Part shown: positions 416-5,045 of the stretch, piece after piece | Position numbering within the stretch: position 1 is the stretch's first letter | Layout: each line of letters starts with the position of its first letter | From: a virus | Length of the DNA: 5,511 nucleotides | Virus record (IMG/VR): IMGVR_UViG_3300045988_049372 | Location: 1-5,511 of that record | Direction: 5' to 3' (one strand) | Made by a program: the position numbers and the translations under genes | Notes under the pieces: model-generated | What the model was told of the DNA's origin: nothing | Database searches by the model: none | Seen by the model: only the letters and a program-made list of their open reading frames with translations

Positions 416-2074
416 TTAGAAATGACCCATCATACCGGGTATACCATACATAGGCATAGGACGGATACACTTTAAATTAAACTTGACATCGAGCAGGAAA
501 TGAGGATAGGACGGAACAGCGACTACACGACTAATAGGCGGGTGGTCTTGTATAAACTCATCAGAAAGCGTAGGCAGCGTAGCAAATTTTTGCGATAAAT
601 GCCAAATATCAAGAGGTTCCTTATAAGTGCTCCGAAATTGACCAGTAATCAAAGACGGCTTATAGCGGTATTCAGCATAGCGCTCTTGGTAGCCAAATAC
701 TTTTTTATCATCAGCATTTCCTTGGCAATAAATCTCGATATTTTCTATGGCTTGTTCACCTAAATGCGCGAAAGACGGCCAATAAAAATCGAGCACATCA
801 GAACGCAGCCACATTTTATTTACTCCTTGCTGATAAGTCAAATCAGCACGAACGTTGATTAAGCCGATAATATAACCAAATTCCGAAAAAGATTTTGTAA
901 AGGCATGATAACGCTGGGCATTCAGACCATAAGCAGCTAAATTACCTTGTGGGGTTGTAGAGTCGGTAGAGCTTGTCTGAGTAACCGGGTTAATATTCAT
1001 CATACTAGAATGCGAGCCAAGGAATTCAGGACGTTGCAAACGAGCATCCGGATTAGTTACGCCGAAGTGTGCTTGAAGTTTTTCAGTGTACCTGGTGCCG
1101 CCGCGAGCGTCAGTCTCATAATAGCGTTGCAACATAAAAGCTTGACGAAGTGAATTAATAGTAACAGCAGTAACGCCAGACAAATCAGCATAAATATTAG
1201 GCGGAGTGCTAGCAGTAATAGAACCGGAATCTGAAGCATTGCTCAATGAGATAGCGCGACCAGCAGGCGCATTTGCAGCAATAAAAACGCCTTTATCATG
1301 GACTGTACCCAAAGCATCAACCCATGAAACACTTTCAATAGGAGTACCGGATGAAACACCAATACCAGCAACAGGAGCGTTACCGTTTAAAGGCAAGTCA
1401 ACAGCCGGACCTTTCTGAGGCCAAGGAAGAGCACCGGTGAAATAGTCATATCTTTTTCCACGCGGAGCCGGGTCATACCAATTACTTACGCCGGACGGAA
1501 AGCCATAATTAGGATTAGCGGTAGATTGACCCATTGGTTCCAAGACTGTACTAGATTCGCCTTTGCTAACCTTAACAGATTTCTGTAAGTTCTCATCTCT
1601 AAACCACTCGTTCCAAATGAGCCAGTACGAGCGGAACGGCAAGCAGTTAACGGAAACATTCTTAAAAGTACCGGAAGCACACGCGATACCCATATAATCG
1701 GGAAGCTTATTAGTCATATCGCCGGTTAGAGAAACAGTAGGTACAAGATAGTCCGTAGAATCTTCGGGATTTTCTTGCTCACCGCACAAATTAACCCATT
1801 TATCATATACGAGCCTACTGGGAACGAAGAAAAAGAAAGACTCAATATAGATGTTATCCATGAAAGGAACTACCGGAGTAGCCAAGCGGCAAAACTCAAC
1901 CGGATTTAAAGTAAACGTATCGCCTGGGATAACCTCATCCACGAAATAGGGAATCAGCTGGCCTTCGTTAAAAGTTGTCTTGTAAACATGACTTCTATCG
2001 AAAACAGAACGGCGAATATTAGCCTGCGGAATCATCGCAAAATGCGATTGATTTACACGAATATTACGAGCCAT
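416..2074 (-). CDS. Major capsid protein VP1 (Microviridae F-protein family), 552 aa.
   Basis: Complete ORF. N-terminal region has the gokushovirus VP1 signature: HFAMIPQANIRRSVFDRSHVYKTTFNEGQLIPYFVDEVIPGDTF...TPVVPFMDNIYIESFFFFVPSRLVYDKW. Size is typical of VP1 with the large insertion loop. AAGGAG RBS at 2091..2086. Confidence 0.93.
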   Translation of the reverse strand: MARNIRVNQSHFAMIPQANIRRSVFDRSHVYKTTFNEGQLIPYFVDEVIPGDTFTLNPVEFCRLATPVVPFMDNIYIESFFFFVPSRLVYDKWVNLCGEQENPEDSTDYLVPTVSLTGDMTNKLPDYMGIACASGTFKNVSVNCLPFRSYWLIWNEWFRDENLQKSVKVSKGESSTVLEPMGQSTANPNYGFPSGVSNWYDPAPRGKRYDYFTGALPWPQKGPAVDLPLNGNAPVAGIGVSSGTPIESVSWVDALGTVHDKGVFIAANAPAGRAISLSNASDSGSITASTPPNIYADLSGVTAVTINSLRQAFMLQRYYETDARGGTRYTEKLQAHFGVTNPDARLQRPEFLGSHSSMMNINPVTQTSSTDSTTPQGNLAAYGLNAQRYHAFTKSFSEFGYIIGLINVRADLTYQQGVNKMWLRSDVLDFYWPSFAHLGEQAIENIEIYCQGNADDKKVFGYQERYAEYRYKPSLITGQFRSTYKEPLDIWHLSQKFATLPTLSDEFIQDHPPISRVVAVPSYPHFLLDVKFNLKCIRPMPMYGIPGMMGHF

Positions 2075-2285: not shown

Positions 2286-2729
2286 TTATTTTTGCTCTAA
2301 TTTAGGCTCTCCTGCTACCGGAGTGACAGGTGCTACCGGAGTATCTACAATAGTCTTTGCTTTTAGGCCTAACTCCTCAAGTCTAGCAACAACCTTTTCG
2401 TCAGTAGATGTTAGAGCATCAAGCAGCATACGCGGGTCATTGCCAAATTCAGCGCGAACGCTGGAAGGCAAATCTGCAAACTCTGCGTTGACGTTAGCAA
2501 CGAGGTTGCAGGCCGTTTCATAGTCAGGCAGTAATGTAGTATCACCGTATTGCAGCGTAGCCGGGTCATGCGCTCCGACAGAATCAACAATGCCGGTAGT
2601 ATTAAAGTTAGCGATAATGTGATGAATGTCGCATTCTTCCGCGAAAGTTTGGTCAGCAAGCGAAGGCTGTGTAATTTCTACGTGCGGTTTTGGCGGTTGC
2701 TCATCATATAACGTAAAAAACTTAGCCAT
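2286..2729 (-). CDS. Putative internal scaffolding protein VP3 (gokushovirus VP3-like), 147 aa.
   Basis: Complete ORF with AAGGAG RBS 10 nt upstream of the ATG at 2729. Acidic protein, size typical of gokushovirus VP3. The motifs EECDIHHII, YGD and AEFADLPSSVRAEFGNDP resemble the conserved ECDINNII ... F..LP..R..F.NDP core of Chlamydia-phage-type scaffold proteins. This is from memory, not a search. Confidence 0.5.
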   Translation of the reverse strand: MAKFFTLYDEQPPKPHVEITQPSLADQTFAEECDIHHIIANFNTTGIVDSVGAHDPATLQYGDTTLLPDYETACNLVANVNAEFADLPSSVRAEFGNDPRMLLDALTSTDEKVVARLEELGLKAKTIVDTPVAPVTPVAGEPKLEQK

Positions 2730-2857
2730 GCGTAAAAATCTCCTTTCTCAACCTAACAAGGCGCGCAGGTCAGTTTTGCGTAAGGCTCAATTCTCGTCCG
2801 CGGTTGTTACGAAGATGTGAAGCGATTGTTCCAGCTGGCGAGCAGCAAAGCGCAATC

Positions 2858-2876
2858 ATACCGGCATAGCCGGTAT
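2858..2876. other. GC-rich stem-loop ATACCGGC-ATA-GCCGGTAT in the leader upstream of VP3: 8-bp stem, 3-nt loop.
   Basis: Exact inverted repeat read from the sequence. On the coding (minus) strand it is preceded by T6 and followed by GATTGCGC. No U-tract follows the stem, so it is not a canonical intrinsic terminator. Confidence 0.7.
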
Positions 2877-2915
2877 ATAAATACAAAAAAGACGCCTAAC
2901 ATTACGCTAGACGCC

Positions 2916-3278
2916 TTAATTGCGTTGTGATATTACAACTTGCCTTGTTAGTATTATACCACAACATTGGAAAGCGGGCAAGCGTACCTTATGAGTACAT
3001 TTTAGCAGTCTCGGGGGGGGAGGAGTCAATAGTTCCGTGGCGGTAGAAAGCAACAAAGTGGGAGATTGCGGGGAAAACACGCATGTTTTATCGTCAAACT
3101 CACCAAGATACATAAGCACAAAGTCCTCGTGATAATCATGGATAATGTTAGAACGCTCCGGAGTAGAGGGCTGATTAACCATGATTTGGAATTGACGAAT
3201 AGCCATAGCGTTATTCTGCTGAGTAAAAGGCGGATTCATTAACTCGCCTTTTCTGTCGTAAATACAATAAAGTTTCAT
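2916..3278 (-). CDS. Hypothetical protein, second gene of the accessory cassette. 120 aa as read; the C-terminal roughly 50 aa are low complexity and span a G8/C8 tract.
   Basis: ATG at 3278 overlaps the upstream stop (ATGA) and is preceded by GAGGTGA with a 7-nt spacer. The N-terminal 65 aa (MKLYCIYDRKGELMNPPFTQQNNAMAIRQFQIMVNQPSTPERSNIIHDYHEDFVLMYLGEFDDKTC) look like a genuine globular protein. The remainder (SPQSPTLLLSTATELLTPPPPRLLKC...) reads like translated non-coding DNA and contains a promoter-like element. Confidence 0.5.
   Translation of the reverse strand: MKLYCIYDRKGELMNPPFTQQNNAMAIRQFQIMVNQPSTPERSNIIHDYHEDFVLMYLGEFDDKTCVFSPQSPTLLLSTATELLTPPPPRLLKCTHKVRLPAFQCCGIILTRQVVISQRN
2953..2981 (-). 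promoter_or_regulatory. Candidate sigma70 promoter for the VP3-VP1-VP2 block: -35 TTGCCC (2981..2976), 17-nt spacer, extended -10 TGgTATAAT (2961..2953). Predicted TSS is near 2946.
   Basis: Minus-strand reading is TTGCCCgctttccaatgttgTGGTATAAT. The -10 is perfect, with an upstream TG and exact 17-nt spacing. It lies inside the low-complexity 3' end of the 120-aa ORF, about 220 nt upstream of the VP3 ATG. Confidence 0.5.
3013..3020. repeat. G8 homopolymer (C8 on the coding strand, encoding PPPP) inside the 120-aa ORF.
   Basis: Read directly. It is the only long G/C homopolymer in this roughly 42% GC genome. A -1 change gives stop after ...TPPRDC. A +1 change gives stop after ...PPPPETAKMYS. 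Confidence 0.8.
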
Positions 3279-3580
3279 TTTTTAATCACCTCAAAAGAAC
3301 CTTTTTTAAGACAAGCGATAAACTCTTGCTTGGCCAAATACGGGAGAACAAAATAAAAAGAGTCGAACAGAAGAACTTGATTTTGAGAAACTAATTTAGA
3401 TTGAGCACAAGGACGAAGATAAATACCGTTAGGCATTTTACGAATCCAGGCACGAGCAGCGGAATAAGACATAAAAAAAGGATAGTCGTCAAGATAGCTC
3501 AAAGCGTCTTCAAAGAAATCTTTATTAGATTGATTCCGAAGGTCTAAAGCAAAAAATTTATCAGCGTAGTTTTTTAACAT
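3275..3580 (-). CDS. Hypothetical protein, first gene of the accessory cassette, 101 aa. The track's 3637 start is revised to the ATG at 3580.
   Basis: The ATG at 3580..3578 is preceded by GAGGTGA 5 nt upstream. It sits about 19 nt downstream of the predicted TSS of a perfect consensus promoter. The track's upstream ATG at 3637 lies between the -35 and -10 hexamers, so it cannot be the start. Protein: MLKNYADKFFALDLRNQSNKDFFEDALSYLDDYPFFMSYSAARAWIRKMPNGIYLRPCAQSKLVSQNQVLLFDSFYFVLPYLAKQEFIACLKKGSFEVIKK. No recognisable family. Confidence 0.6.
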   Translation of the reverse strand: MLKNYADKFFALDLRNQSNKDFFEDALSYLDDYPFFMSYSAARAWIRKMPNGIYLRPCAQSKLVSQNQVLLFDSFYFVLPYLAKQEFIACLKKGSFEVIKK

Positions 3581-3605
3581 TACGCTCACCTCACTTTCTA
3601 TACAT

Positions 3606-3634
3606 ATTATACCATGAGGAAACGCAACTGTCAA
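3606..3634 (-). promoter_or_regulatory. Perfect consensus sigma70 promoter: TTGACA (3634..3629), 17-nt spacer, TATAAT (3611..3606).
   Basis: Minus-strand reading is TTGACAgttgcgtttcctcatggTATAAT. Both hexamers match consensus 6/6 with the optimal 17-nt spacer. It sits in the 80-nt spacer between the rep stop (3661) and the 101-aa gene, reading into that gene. Confidence 0.75.
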
Positions 3635-3660
3635 CAACTTTTTGCAACTTTTAGCAACTT
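3634..3660 (-). repeat. Three direct repeats A(2-5)GTTG(C/T) phased at 10-bp intervals (AGTTGC 3659..3654, AGTTGC 3649..3644, AGTTGT 3639..3634). They lie immediately upstream of, and overlap, the -35 hexamer.
   Basis: Minus strand reads AAGTTGCtAAAAGTTGCAAAAAGTTGTTGACA. Helical phasing together with A-tracts suggests an UP-element, an operator or iteron-like sites. Confidence 0.65.
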
Positions 3661-4605
3661 TTATAAACCTAAATTATCAAAATCACGCTCGAATTGCTCC
3701 TGCCGGTGCTTCAAAATCTTTTCCTTGGCTTCCAATCTTTTGCAATCAATAACAGCAGCCTTTGCATTATCGGCCTTATTTTGCTTGTATATACTATACC
3801 AAACGGGATTACTACGCTCAAATAATGTTTGATAGTAACGAGGTATCTTATACTTAGCTCCGTTGATTGTTACAAAGCCAAGTTTAAAAATATCCTCAGA
3901 GTAACGACCGAAATAGTCTGCTCCAATGCCTGGCTTAAGAGAGCTGCCAACAAACTCCGGACTAATACCAAGAGCATCATACATAAAGGCATTTTTACCG
4001 GTCTGCTTTTTGAGAGAGTATTTAGCGACATACCGGGCCGACTCAAATGTGATAGCTCCGACAATATTATAACCATAAGGCCAAAGCTTCTCCAGCGTAG
4101 GAGAACGAAAGAGATTATAGCCAGCTGCTAACGCCGATACCTTCCGGACATCAGCAGGAAACCAACCAAAGCACAAAATATGATAATGTGGACGGCGATT
4201 GAGATCGCCATACTCACCGCAACACAGAAAACGAATTTTAGAACTGTCATGATAATCTAAATAGCGACGCAACCTCTTAAAAAATAGTTGCAAATGTTCA
4301 CGATGCAGCGAGCAATCTGCTGGAAGGCAATCATCATTATAAGTTAGCGTGATGAAGCAGTTATGCAAATGTAATTTAGCTTCGTGAACACAACGAATAG
4401 CCCAATCATTAGCTTTATCAAGACGGCAGCCAAGGCATTGACCGCAAGGAACGACAACAGCATAATTATTAGCTAACTCACTTTTAGCTATTTCCAGAGA
4501 TTTCCCGGATAAATCGCGATAAGAAACAAAATTAGAAAGCTCAAATTTGCCGTTAGCATTTGGAACGGCAGAGCGTTTAGCAAACATAGGATTTAGGCAA
4601 GTCAT
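3661..4605 (-). CDS. Replication initiation protein VP4. Rolling-circle HUH endonuclease of superfamily I, Microviridae gene A / VP4 type.
   Basis: RCR motif I CFITLTY, motif II RPHYHILCFGW (HxH) and motif III ARYVAKYSLKK (paired catalytic tyrosines Y..KY). N-terminal CxxC..C cluster VVVPCGQCLGCRLD is typical of gokushovirus VP4. Start is set at the ATG at 4605 (MTCLNPMF..., matching the common M.CL.P VP4 N-terminus). The track's 4617 start is a GTG with no SD. Confidence 0.9.
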   Translation of the reverse strand: MTCLNPMFAKRSAVPNANGKFELSNFVSYRDLSGKSLEIAKSELANNYAVVVPCGQCLGCRLDKANDWAIRCVHEAKLHLHNCFITLTYNDDCLPADCSLHREHLQLFFKRLRRYLDYHDSSKIRFLCCGEYGDLNRRPHYHILCFGWFPADVRKVSALAAGYNLFRSPTLEKLWPYGYNIVGAITFESARYVAKYSLKKQTGKNAFMYDALGISPEFVGSSLKPGIGADYFGRYSEDIFKLGFVTINGAKYKIPRYYQTLFERSNPVWYSIYKQNKADNAKAAVIDCKRLEAKEKILKHRQEQFERDFDNLGL

Positions 4606-4623
4606 AATATCACACACTTTCTG

Positions 4624-4737
4624 TTACATGCGGATACCGCCGCGCATGTTGCGAGATTTAAGATTTTTGAGCCGTGGCACGGCATGGTTACGAAAGTTCC
4701 GGCGCGAAGCTCCGCGAGAAATTCTAGTTCTTTTCAT
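4624..4737 (-). CDS. Small arginine-rich DNA-binding protein, 37 aa. Gokushovirus ORF8-like; functional analogue of phiX174 J.
   Basis: It is below the 60-aa cut-off, so it is not in the ORF track. The ATG at 4737 is preceded by AAGGAG with an 8-nt spacer; the TAA stop is at 4626..4624. Protein: MKRTRISRGASRRNFRNHAVPRLKNLKSRNMRGGIRM. About 30% Arg/Lys. The C-terminal MRGGIR motif matches my recollection of the Chlamydia-phage ORF8 C-terminus (...IMRGGIRF). Confidence 0.65.
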   Translation of the reverse strand: MKRTRISRGASRRNFRNHAVPRLKNLKSRNMRGGIRM

Positions 4738-4775: not shown

Positions 4776-5045
4776 TTAATTATTTTTTCCCAAAAAGCGG
4801 GAGTAACTTTTTTCTTCCGTCGCTGCTGCTGCCGCGTGGCGAAAGCCATTTACATCGTCGCTACCTCTTTTCTGCATATTAACAAGATCATCTTGCATAG
4901 CAAGCGAGATAGCTTTAAGGCTTGCGCTACCTTCACGATCGTATTTGCCAGTACGAAACATATCAATAAAATCAACAACCTCTTGAATGAAAGGAATAAC
5001 GGTAGATACGAGAAAAGTCAAAATAGCAGTAGTTTTGTTTGACAT
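4776..5045 (-). CDS. Hypothetical 89-aa protein with an N-terminal hydrophobic, putatively transmembrane helix. Candidate membrane or lysis protein.
   Basis: The ATG at 5045 is preceded by GAGGTGA with a 6-nt spacer; the VP2 stop TGA is embedded in this RBS. Residues 6-22 (TAILTFLVSTVIPFIQEVV) are hydrophobic, followed by a charged soluble tail. No family recognised. Confidence 0.55.
   Translation of the reverse strand: MSNKTTAILTFLVSTVIPFIQEVVDFIDMFRTGKYDREGSASLKAISLAMQDDLVNMQKRGSDDVNGFRHAAAAATEEKSYSRFLGKNN

Follow-up and report, generated by a model that had tools for sequence, protein, structure and literature searches.

A hypervariable gene behind a consensus promoter at the VP4-VP5 junction of a gokushovirus clade

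INTRODUCTION

What kind of gene lies behind a perfect sigma70-type promoter in the middle of a 5.5-kb phage genome? Herein, we addressed this question for IMG/VR virus record IMGVR_UViG_3300045988_049372, whose 5,511 nucleotides (nt) were analysed over their full length and are called the window below. The locus occupies positions 3660..2916 on the minus strand, between the genes for VP4 and VP3, and comprises two small open reading frames (ORFs), ORF A and ORF B. An earlier note, made from the letters of the sequence alone, had taken the two for a translationally coupled accessory pair that resembles no core protein of the Microviridae, and had proposed an anti-defence, superinfection-exclusion, host-takeover or toxin-antitoxin-like function. 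We report that the VP5 half of the locus, ORF B, is already known. ORF A, for its part, brings a protein family that is new and a type of locus not seen before in microviruses, namely a promoter-equipped hypervariable slot with relatives in a large phage-like element. For ORF A, the reading that we favor is a gene directed at the host, and the evidence on which this reading and its competitors rest is given below.

RESULTS

ORF B matches the core protein VP5

The window was found to be a complete, circularly assembled gokushovirus genome, a circle of ~5.46 kb whose 5511 nt include a 55-nt terminal overlap. All genes of the circle, those of the ORF A/VP5 locus included, are carried by the minus strand, and Pfam and PHROG matches together with gene calls gave the order VP4, ORF A, ORF B, VP3, VP1, and VP2. 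The position of the pair between VP4 (the replication protein, Rep) and VP3, as first described, was confirmed, and the tight juxtaposition of the two genes is conserved in relatives.

ORF B (2916..3278, minus strand, 120 aa) matched the Pfam family PF20577 (Phage_ORF5), whose gathering cutoff is 27 bits, with a score of 74.0 bits and an E of 7.4e-21, residues 3-81 covering positions 1-74 of the 75 in the profile, and phrog_1670, a 'DNA binding protein' family, at E 1.4e-23. The protein was 85-95% identical in relatives of the clade; with VP5/ORF5 proteins annotated as such, the identity was 37-61%, the value for KT264820 VP5 being 61%. A tblastn search retrieved ORF5/VP5 of Chlamydia phages 2, 3, and 4, as well as many genes annotated as 'nonstructural' or 'DNA binding protein VP5'. 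The gene follows VP4 and precedes VP3, all three being on one strand, as in the conserved gokushovirus order VP4-VP5-VP3-VP1-VP2-VP8 (PMC7062461), and the insertion of ORF A is the sole departure from this synteny. By family match and canonical placement, ORF B is VP5, a core non-structural or replication protein of gokushoviruses, to which a role in switching from double-stranded DNA (dsDNA) to single-stranded DNA (ssDNA) replication has been assigned by analogy (PMC7062461). Compared with VP5/ORF5 of Chp2, Chp3, and Chp4, it differs in that a 382-nt insert holding the promoter and ORF A separates it from VP4, and in that a tail of ~30 aa has been added by a frameshift. Thus, of the proposal that neither ORF resembles a core Microviridae protein, only the part concerning ORF A survived; ORF B turned out to be homologous to VP5, a protein conserved at this position across relatives.

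This identity bears on the idea that ORF A and ORF B form a self-contained two-gene system, whether toxin-antitoxin-like, anti-defence or for exclusion. The layout would suit such a system, considering that two small juxtaposed genes with an ATGA overlap follow a promoter of their own and precede a hairpin terminator. However, VP5 is present throughout the Gokushovirinae, whether ORF A accompanies it or not. No co-variation of the two genes was seen, and one relative described below (L026) has lost ORF A and kept VP5. Homologues of ORF A in a large element, also described below, have no adjoining VP5-like gene. Searches of Pfam, NCBIfam and PADLOC gave no match above noise to a toxin-antitoxin or defence family for either protein; the sole match, to DrmB (E 0.0015, 15 bits), spanned VP5 residues 20-99 including the frameshifted tail and was noise. 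Because ORF B is VP5, the toxin-antitoxin pair and the two-gene cassette were ruled out in the form first proposed, and a self-contained system of any other make would be very improbable.

As to translational coupling, the ATGA formed by the ORF A stop codon and the ORF B start codon is present in the window, but the exact overlap is not conserved: in relatives the junction is anything between an overlap of 23 nt and a gap of 12 nt. VP5 also has its own Shine-Dalgarno sequence, GAGGTGA (3286..3292, minus strand), which lies inside the ORF A codons F-E-V-I, 7 nt ahead of the VP5 ATG. No terminator was found between ORF A and VP5, where the genes overlap, and the first hairpin comes after VP5.

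ORF A occupies a hypervariable slot between VP4 and VP5

ORF A (3275..3580, minus strand) encodes 101 aa and is a type-1 member of a hypervariable family whose proteins begin MLKDY. In the ORF listing it begins earlier, with a TTG (3637) that precedes the promoter P1, but gene callers and relatives use the ATG at 3580, which was adopted here. The gap between VP4 and VP5 is 382 nt in the window; it measures 29 nt in Chp2 and only 13 nt in Bog8989_22, while in KT264826 the two genes overlap. Since VP4 and VP5 adjoin in these three genomes, ORF A is, by gene order, an accessory insert into an ancestrally contiguous VP4-VP5 junction.

The content of this insert was compared among relatives. In 15 IMG/VR genomes whose VP5 is 81-98% identical to that of the window, the slot holds ORFs of 83-121 aa, and for most of these BLAST gave no alignment with ORF A. 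Even so, nearly all begin MLKDY, and the motifs F-(S/T)-(S/T)-Y-x-x-A-R and (F/Y)-D-(G/S)-F-Y-Y-(V/I) are common to them. Across 22 genomes of the clade, the amino-acid identity to the window was 84-96% for VP4, 89-100% for VP5, 86-95% for VP3, 81-98% for VP1, 88-98% for an 89-aa ORF described below, and 63-95% for VP2, whereas that of ORF A ran from 87% down to no match, making it by far the most variable gene of the clade. Sliding nucleotide identity was 80-97% up to the start of ORF A, 20-50% inside it, and 80-93% from the start of VP5 onward. One part of the protein escapes this turnover: a C-terminal EVKK, EVIKK, or NEVK recurs in otherwise unrelated ORF A subtypes. Because this ...EV(I)KK end coincides with the VP5 Shine-Dalgarno sequence, it probably reflects a constraint at the RNA level.

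Two other gut gokushovirus genomes, from GenBank, also carry small genes here. In KT264820.1 (L001) an unannotated ORF of 90 aa (4155..4427) and in KX513874.1 (L045) an unannotated ORF of 80 aa (912..1153) end overlapping the VP5 start codon, and the KT264820 slot has a TTGCAA-17-TGtTATAAT promoter with an 18-nt direct repeat upstream. Neither ORF showed detectable homology to the ORF A profile (hhalign probability 0.8% and 1.3%, respectively). Judged by these sequences, the VP4-VP5 junction serves as a slot that small genes occupy.

The slot can also lose its content. In the relative L026 (IMGVR_UViG_3300045988_121362), P1 and the first two thirds of ORF A are deleted while the other genes are intact. 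The deletion lies ~120 nt upstream of VP5 at 1641, between 9-nt microhomologies of the form AA(A/G)GTTGTT, so that a promoter repeat (AAAAGTTGTT) is joined to ORF A codons (AAGGTTGTT). Because the junction falls at repeat microhomology, the AAAAGTTGY repeats upstream of P1 may promote loss or exchange of the ORF A cassette. On the strength of L026 and of a second variant, L028, in which P1 itself is altered (see below), P1 and ORF A are probably non-essential, L026 being known from a metagenomic assembly only. The patchy, cargo-like distribution anticipated in the earlier note was therefore observed, for ORF A alone: its alleles are unrecognizable amid genes of 84-100% identity, the slot is empty in classical gokushoviruses, and the gene is deleted in L026.

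ORF A is a coding gene with no known relative and a predicted topology shared in its family

Whether so variable an ORF is a gene at all was judged from substitution rates. Against eight relatives (Nei-Gojobori), the dN/dS of ORF A was 0.12-0.42 at dS 0.6-1.3, indicating that ORF A is a real gene under purifying selection. In the same comparison, VP4, VP5, and VP3 gave 0.03-0.14, and the amino-acid rate of ORF A is several-fold that of its neighbors.

The family was then delimited. Close homologues of ORF A fell into 9 clusters at 53-100% identity, all on contigs of at most 5.6 kb and at the same position. A narrow ORF A profile recovered only 6 proteins from 1.84 billion representatives; when positional homologues found by synteny were added to the profile, 87 clusters were recovered, and it is this addition that made the wider family visible. 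The profiles of types 1 and 2 matched each other with an hhalign probability of 89% (E 2.5e-6). Family members are proteins of 70-120 aa with a core of ~75 aa and interchangeable C-terminal tails, for example HFKAFIDYTSNELARDGV..., LNSAPRSLDYDRLSLLMRCKK, and DSMDKGIAKINAELD....

The AlphaFold2 (AF2) model of ORF A was a small alpha/beta protein (pLDDT 82, pTM 0.73), and an independent model of a type-2 member (pLDDT 91) has its secondary-structure elements in the same order; the core topology of the family in these models is beta-alpha-alpha-beta-alpha-beta-beta-alpha. A winged-helix reading of the helix-helix-helix-hairpin layout was tried and dropped, as there was no match to such a fold. 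The window protein has a pI of 9.1, within a range of 5.8-9.1 for type 1, and a GRAVY of -0.12. A role as lysis protein was considered and rejected, there being no hydrophobic or transmembrane segment and the homologues lying in an early-type gene array.

No known relative emerged. The window protein had no match in Pfam, PHROGs, NCBIfam, or PADLOC, and 22 members of the family gave only noise against sequence families (SUEL_Lectin at E 0.001 in three, two PHROGs at E ~0.01). A sequence profile search of the PDB returned 0 matches at E<=10, a tblastn search of 50,697 phage records gave none, and Foldseek of the ORF A model against BFVD reached a best E of 0.2, with no informative fold neighbor for either of the two AF2 models. 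ORF A is thus a genuine accessory gene for which these comparisons found no known relative.

The alternative that ORF A is a drifting filler, an ORF kept open only for P1, the leader, and the VP5 ribosome-binding site, with its conserved ends being DNA or RNA signals, has the divergent interior of the ORF and the existence of a natural deletion in its favor, and also the coincidence of the C-terminal EV(I)KK with the VP5 Shine-Dalgarno sequence. However, the dN/dS is 0.12-0.42 and not ~1, the internal motifs F-S/T-S/T-Y-x-x-A-R and F/Y-D-G/S-F-Y-Y-V persist across subtypes, and more than 85 clusters keep the frame open. In addition, both AF2 models are confident and share a topology, and the MLKDY N-terminus and core are kept in the different context of the large element. 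A mere filler therefore seems improbable.

P1 and its upstream repeats are near-invariant

The only 12/12 sigma70-type site in the window is P1 (3606..3634, minus strand), which consists of TTGACA (3634..3629), 17 nt, and TATAAT (3611..3606) and carries an extended -10 TG (TGgTATAAT), so that both hexamers, the spacer length, and the TG are those of a sigma70/SigmaA-type promoter. The exact TTGACA-17-TATAAT pattern was observed once versus 0.01 expected (200 shuffles). It recurs as a perfect 29-nt pattern at the same position in ~35 related loci, that is, in essentially every related genome fetched, and the whole 80-nt spacer between VP4 and ORF A, with its repeats, hexamers, TG, and leader, is near-invariant in relatives regardless of the ORF A subtype. 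The exceptions are L026, in which P1 is deleted, and L028, in which the -35 hexamer is lost and TGtTATAAT kept. The predicted 5' leader (3581..3599, minus strand) would be ~18-19 nt long if transcription starts near 3599, ~7 nt past the -10 hexamer, and it holds a Shine-Dalgarno sequence, GAGGTGA (3592..3586), 5 nt ahead of the ATG at 3580. The perfect promoter with its 17-nt spacing and the short leader of about 19 nt, both pointed out previously, were thus borne out and found to be conserved. The activity and timing of P1 are predictions from its sequence. An internal promoter as such is not exotic: phiX174 has the internal promoters PA, PB, and PD, internal sigma70 promoters are normal in Microviridae, and one ahead of a C-like gene is ordinary for the family.

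Immediately upstream, three tandem AAAAGTTGY units (3634..3662, minus strand) run with an exact 10-bp period from the VP4 stop codon to the -35 hexamer, which they abut or overlap. The window holds 4 copies versus 0.26 expected, the fourth being at 1970..1978 on the plus strand, and the copy number near P1 varies from 2 to 4 among relatives. We read the phased A-tracts as an UP-element-like or bent upstream region; the repeats may also be a protein-binding iteron, a candidate site for Rep or a regulator. On the opposite strand they read CAACTTTT, which resembles the CAACTTG core of the phiX174 origin.

These repeats raise the alternative that ORF A is a small DNA-binding regulator which acts on AAAAGTTGY and autoregulates P1, or times a switch between P1 and a second promoter-like site, P2 (described below). 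Three or four conserved direct repeats at helical periodicity touch the -35 hexamer, the modeled ORF A has a helix-helix-helix plus beta-hairpin arrangement, and the window protein is basic (pI 9.1). However, a protein that binds its operator specifically would hardly be expected to be as variable as ORF A while the repeats stay near-invariant; the pI varies from 5.8 to 9.1 even within type 1; and the homologue in the large element has a plain A-tract upstream instead of AAAAGTTGY repeats. We consider such a regulator improbable as well.

Homologues of ORF A lie in an early-type array of a large phage-like element

Four members of the ORF A family, P0065, P0078, P0079, and P0080, are located on long contigs of 14 to 104 kb, and the members of the P0080 90% cluster are on contigs of 100-105 kb, which suggests an element with a genome of ~104 kb. 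This gut phage-like element was sampled as L038 1..20225 and L035 1..20246, from contigs of 84 kb and 47 kb, respectively, and has a GC content of 34%. P0065 is 53-60% identical to type-2 microvirus alleles, and a second paralogue ~0.5 kb downstream is 30-36% identical to type-3 alleles. An 81-aa neighbor was considered as a third paralogue and rejected on comparison.

Both homologues belong to a one-directional array of ~40 genes for proteins of 35-240 aa, which includes ArdA (PF07275, phrog_2059), ~3 kb from the ORF A homologues, and two phage-type metallophosphoesterases. Per 20 kb, 9-10 perfect TTGACA-17-TATAAT promoters were counted in the array, most of which have the TG, as well as ~13 further 11/12 sites. 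All are on the coding strand, and hairpin terminators are numerous. P0065 has its own perfect promoter, a GAGAGGT Shine-Dalgarno sequence, and the plain A-tract upstream. The opposite strand encodes an HNH endonuclease and a methyltransferase. By analogy, the array has the look of a host-takeover module of very large size.

In the fetched regions of the large element, no microvirus core gene was detectable, and no VP5-like gene follows the ORF A homologues. Because of this absence and of the recurrence of the arrangement in independent samples, it is not an assembly chimera. The DNA of the element had no megablast match among phages (INPHARED), and P0065 had none among phages or plasmids (INPHARED, PLSDB); the phosphoesterase is related to phage proteins. 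Judging by its genes, the element is likely a dsDNA phage.

A side observation concerns a segment of ~2.4 kb in L038 (13826..16263) without a called gene, whose coding strand has only three ORFs of 54-63 aa. Its first part (13826..15092) has no ORF of at least 50 aa, though promoter-like sites are present. The segment could be a non-coding RNA, a set of recoded genes, or an origin region.

The link between ORF A and an early or anti-defence array is direct for subtypes 2 and 3; type 1, to which the window belongs, is linked through family membership only. Of the host-directed or anti-defence function suggested previously, the two-gene system did not hold up, but the idea itself gained from the finding of ORF A homologues in an array with ArdA and consensus promoters.

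The occurrence in two kinds of genome also bears on the alternative that ORF A is a replication or packaging helper which works with VP4 and VP5, its variability arising from co-evolution of phage partners or from low constraint. In phiX174, the genes B, K, and A* lie between or within A and C, and ORF A could be a positional analogue of one of them. It lies between Rep and VP5, is predicted to be co-transcribed with VP5, and is tightly juxtaposed with it in every relative; its dN/dS is below 1; and KT264820 and KX513874 have unrelated slot ORFs (90 and 80 aa) that end on the VP5 start. However, ORF A becomes unrecognizable in genomes whose VP4 and VP5 are still 84-100% conserved, so that there is no co-variation. 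The homologues are found in a large dsDNA element without detectable VP4 or VP5 in the fetched regions, the natural deletion in L026 leaves the other genes intact, and classical gokushoviruses have no gene in the slot at all. ORF A further differs from phiX174 B, K, and A* in that it is not overprinted on Rep, has no PHROG or Pfam similarity, and is clade-specific and hypervariable rather than fixed. A helper of this kind is in our judgment unlikely.

A C-run extends VP5 into a conserved intergenic region

The length of ORF B, given as 70-120 aa in the earlier note, spans two forms of the protein. The conserved core of VP5 comprises residues 1 to ~88 (3278..~3015, minus strand) and aligns with VP5 proteins of 86-97 aa, and most relatives have a VP5 of 93 aa ending ...TPPPETVKM. 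At the 3' end of the core, the window has a C8 homopolymer (3013..3020, minus strand; G8 on the plus strand). In the alignment this run is two bases longer than that of the relative L007, and the resulting frameshift lengthens VP5 to 120 aa, as against 93 aa without it. The shifted tail, the last ~30 residues, reads through the normally intergenic P2 region to a hairpin. The run varies from C5 to C10 between genomes, as seen in the window and in the relatives L018, L019, L021, and L023. VP5 forms of 119, 120, 131, and 139 aa recur in several lineages with differing run lengths, those of 120 and 139 aa on many contigs. The run could be a genuine frameshift-prone site, of a contingency-like or slippage type, or a recurrent assembly error.

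The promoter-like site P2 (2953..2981, minus strand; TTGCCC, 17 nt, TGgTATAAT; 10/12 with TG) lies inside the frameshifted tail. It is kept in 13 relatives, where it is intergenic between VP5 and VP3, and is flanked by an inverted repeat, CTTGCC/GGCAAG. Directly after the ORF B stop codon comes a terminator-like hairpin (2889..2917, minus strand) with a stem of 12-13 bp followed by T6, which is likely, on its predicted structure, the 3' end of the P1 transcript and possibly leaky. This hairpin is flanked by two more conserved ones, so that the three are GTTGTAATATCACAAC, the terminator-like 2917..2889, and TACCGGCTATGCCGGTA; their stems show compensatory changes in relatives. The VP5-VP3 region as a whole (~3010..2730, minus strand; ~290 nt) is highly conserved and structured, with an RNA fold z of -4.2. 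It may hold a late promoter, terminators, and possibly a complementary-strand origin. An Rfam scan of the window found no known RNA.

Other genes of the window and hints at the host

The remaining genes are those of a gokushovirus. VP4/Rep (4617 or 4605..3661; PF23343, phrog_942), the scaffold protein VP3 (2729..2286; PF09675), and the capsid protein VP1 (2074..416; PF02305) were identified on the minus strand, and VP2, identified by gene call on the same strand, wraps around the window ends. Between VP2 and the VP8-like gene sits an 89-aa ORF (5045..4776, minus strand; phrog_23638, function unknown) with a hydrophobic N-terminal segment (TAILTFLVSTVIPFI), which makes its product a candidate membrane or lysis protein. 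To our knowledge, no lysis gene has been identified so far in the gokushovirus subfamily. A basic, VP8/J-like ORF of 37 aa (4737..4624, minus strand; phrog_10695) encodes an Arg/Lys-rich peptide (MKRTRISRGASRRNFRNH...), likely a VP8/J-like DNA-binding packaging peptide; gene callers easily miss such an ORF.

We take the virus for a human-gut gokushovirus. An identical ORF A protein is encoded on contigs of several assemblies, which include at least one metagenome of the human gut. Among GenBank genomes, that of the mink virus Gokushovirus WZ-2015a (KT264820) comes closest, with only ~68% nucleotide identity over half of the genome. When genome contigs were scanned for a host, a single microvirus-sized contig was found: L039 (SFFE01000042.1, 5535 nt), a complete microvirus genome of the clade deposited inside a metagenome-assembled genome (MAG) of a 'Clostridiales bacterium', which is either a binning artefact or a weak host hint. 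Searches of IMG/VR for host clues returned microvirus contigs only. The strong GAGGTGA sites and the contig binned with Clostridiales are indirect hints at a host using canonical promoters and Shine-Dalgarno sequences.

DISCUSSION

According to the above results, the locus combines a known core gene with an inserted, fast-evolving one. We favor, at a probability of roughly 0.5, the reading that ORF A is a moron-like early gene directed at the host, for takeover or counter-defence, and that P1 yields one mRNA for ORF A and VP5. In such a course of events, P1 would fire via the host RNA polymerase once the incoming single strand has been made double-stranded. The mRNA would begin with the leader of ~19 nt and its strong Shine-Dalgarno sequence, run through ORF A and then VP5, and end, probably leakily, at the 2917..2889 hairpin. 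For VP5, translation would start from the Shine-Dalgarno sequence that lies within the last codons of ORF A, with at most partial coupling to ORF A. ORF A, made early and abundantly, would bind a host component and thereby favor infection; its variability would reflect host targets that differ or evolve, and it would be dispensable for the production of virions.

The sequences show the layout of the locus and its conservation, that ORF A is coding and hypervariable, that ORF B is VP5, the homology across elements, and the natural deletion; the activity and timing of P1, the host-directed action, and the nature of the target are what we infer here. A host target is preferred to a phage target because the family occurs in genomes of two unrelated kinds, shows no co-variation with VP4 or VP5, and appears dispensable; machinery specific to microviruses is an unlikely target for a gene that serves a large dsDNA element as well. 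ORF A also has the hallmarks of early host-takeover genes, being an orphan of just 101 aa behind a 12/12 promoter and a GAGGTGA Shine-Dalgarno sequence.

Several points weigh against this reading. The link to takeover or anti-defence is guilt by association, through ArdA and promoter architecture in another element, which may be a phage or a mobile element of another kind. Type 1, that of the window, was found on microvirus-size contigs only, the homologues in the large element being nearer to types 2 and 3. Considering that the overall dN/dS is below 1, relaxed constraint could explain the divergence instead of an arms race. L026 is a metagenome assembly and possibly a defective genome. How strong P1 is, when it fires, and where its transcript ends are predictions, and P1 may serve mainly VP5 and the genes downstream, with ORF A as a passenger.

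Comparison with known systems shows both likeness and difference. As in phiX174, a constitutive host-sigma70 promoter located downstream of or within Rep would drive small non-structural genes and then a C-like gene, a second promoter (here P2) precedes the scaffold and capsid block, and the hairpin terminators are likely read through. Phage morons, a concept that stems from lambdoid phages, are extra genes with their own promoter between conserved genes. ORF A resembles them in its position between genes that are contiguous in relatives, its strong promoter, its natural deletion, and its kin in unrelated phage genomes. It differs in having no terminator of its own, so that its predicted transcript runs into the core gene VP5. 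Moreover, the genome concerned is that of a lytic-type 5.5-kb ssDNA microvirus, in which each 300 nt is costly, and there is no sign of prophage expression.

The host-takeover module of phage SPO1 (genes 37-60) encodes small early proteins behind high-expression promoters and ribosome-binding sites (PMC6873191; Stewart et al. 1998 cited therein). The homologues of ORF A likewise belong to an array of small, mostly orphan genes in which each 20 kb has 9-10 perfect promoters, and the SPO1 genes are individually dispensable, as we infer for ORF A. However, the window has a single such gene, and the likeness is one of architecture, not of sequence similarity to an SPO1 protein. With ArdA and other anti-defence genes, the ORF A family shares small size, fast evolution, and a lack of annotation, and its homologues lie co-directionally ~3 kb from ArdA. 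Nonetheless, ORF A has no homology to these proteins and, with a pI of 5.8-9.1, is not markedly acidic and no obvious DNA mimic, and the association with ArdA belongs to an ORF A homologue in another genome rather than to the gene in the window.

A wider proposal is more speculative, and we put it forward tentatively: ORF A and its relatives might be an unrecognized counter-defence or takeover family that moves between microviruses and a ~104-kb dsDNA phage of the same gut bacteria, with the VP4-VP5 junction as a promoter-equipped 'plug-in slot' in which alleles and tail modules are swapped to match host strains.

For annotation, the gain is immediate: the '120-aa unknown' protein is VP5 with a frameshifted tail, and the slot ORFs of KT264820 and KX513874 have gone unannotated. 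For the biology of the family, microviruses have been described as having rigid genomes and very limited accessory repertoires, with hardly any genes traded with other viruses and exchange rare outside peptidases and methyltransferases (PMC9239249). The ORF A locus departs from this picture, as it is a delimited hypervariable slot with a near-invariant promoter and an orphan family that also occurs in a large phage-like element. If true, the 'plug-in slot' would contradict the view of microviruses as genetically isolated and almost without accessory functions. Microviruses are among the most abundant gut phages, and the hosts of gut gokushoviruses are largely unknown; if ORF A is a takeover or counter-defence factor, it would provide a minimal study system of 5.5 kb and a host-strain marker for gut gokushoviruses.

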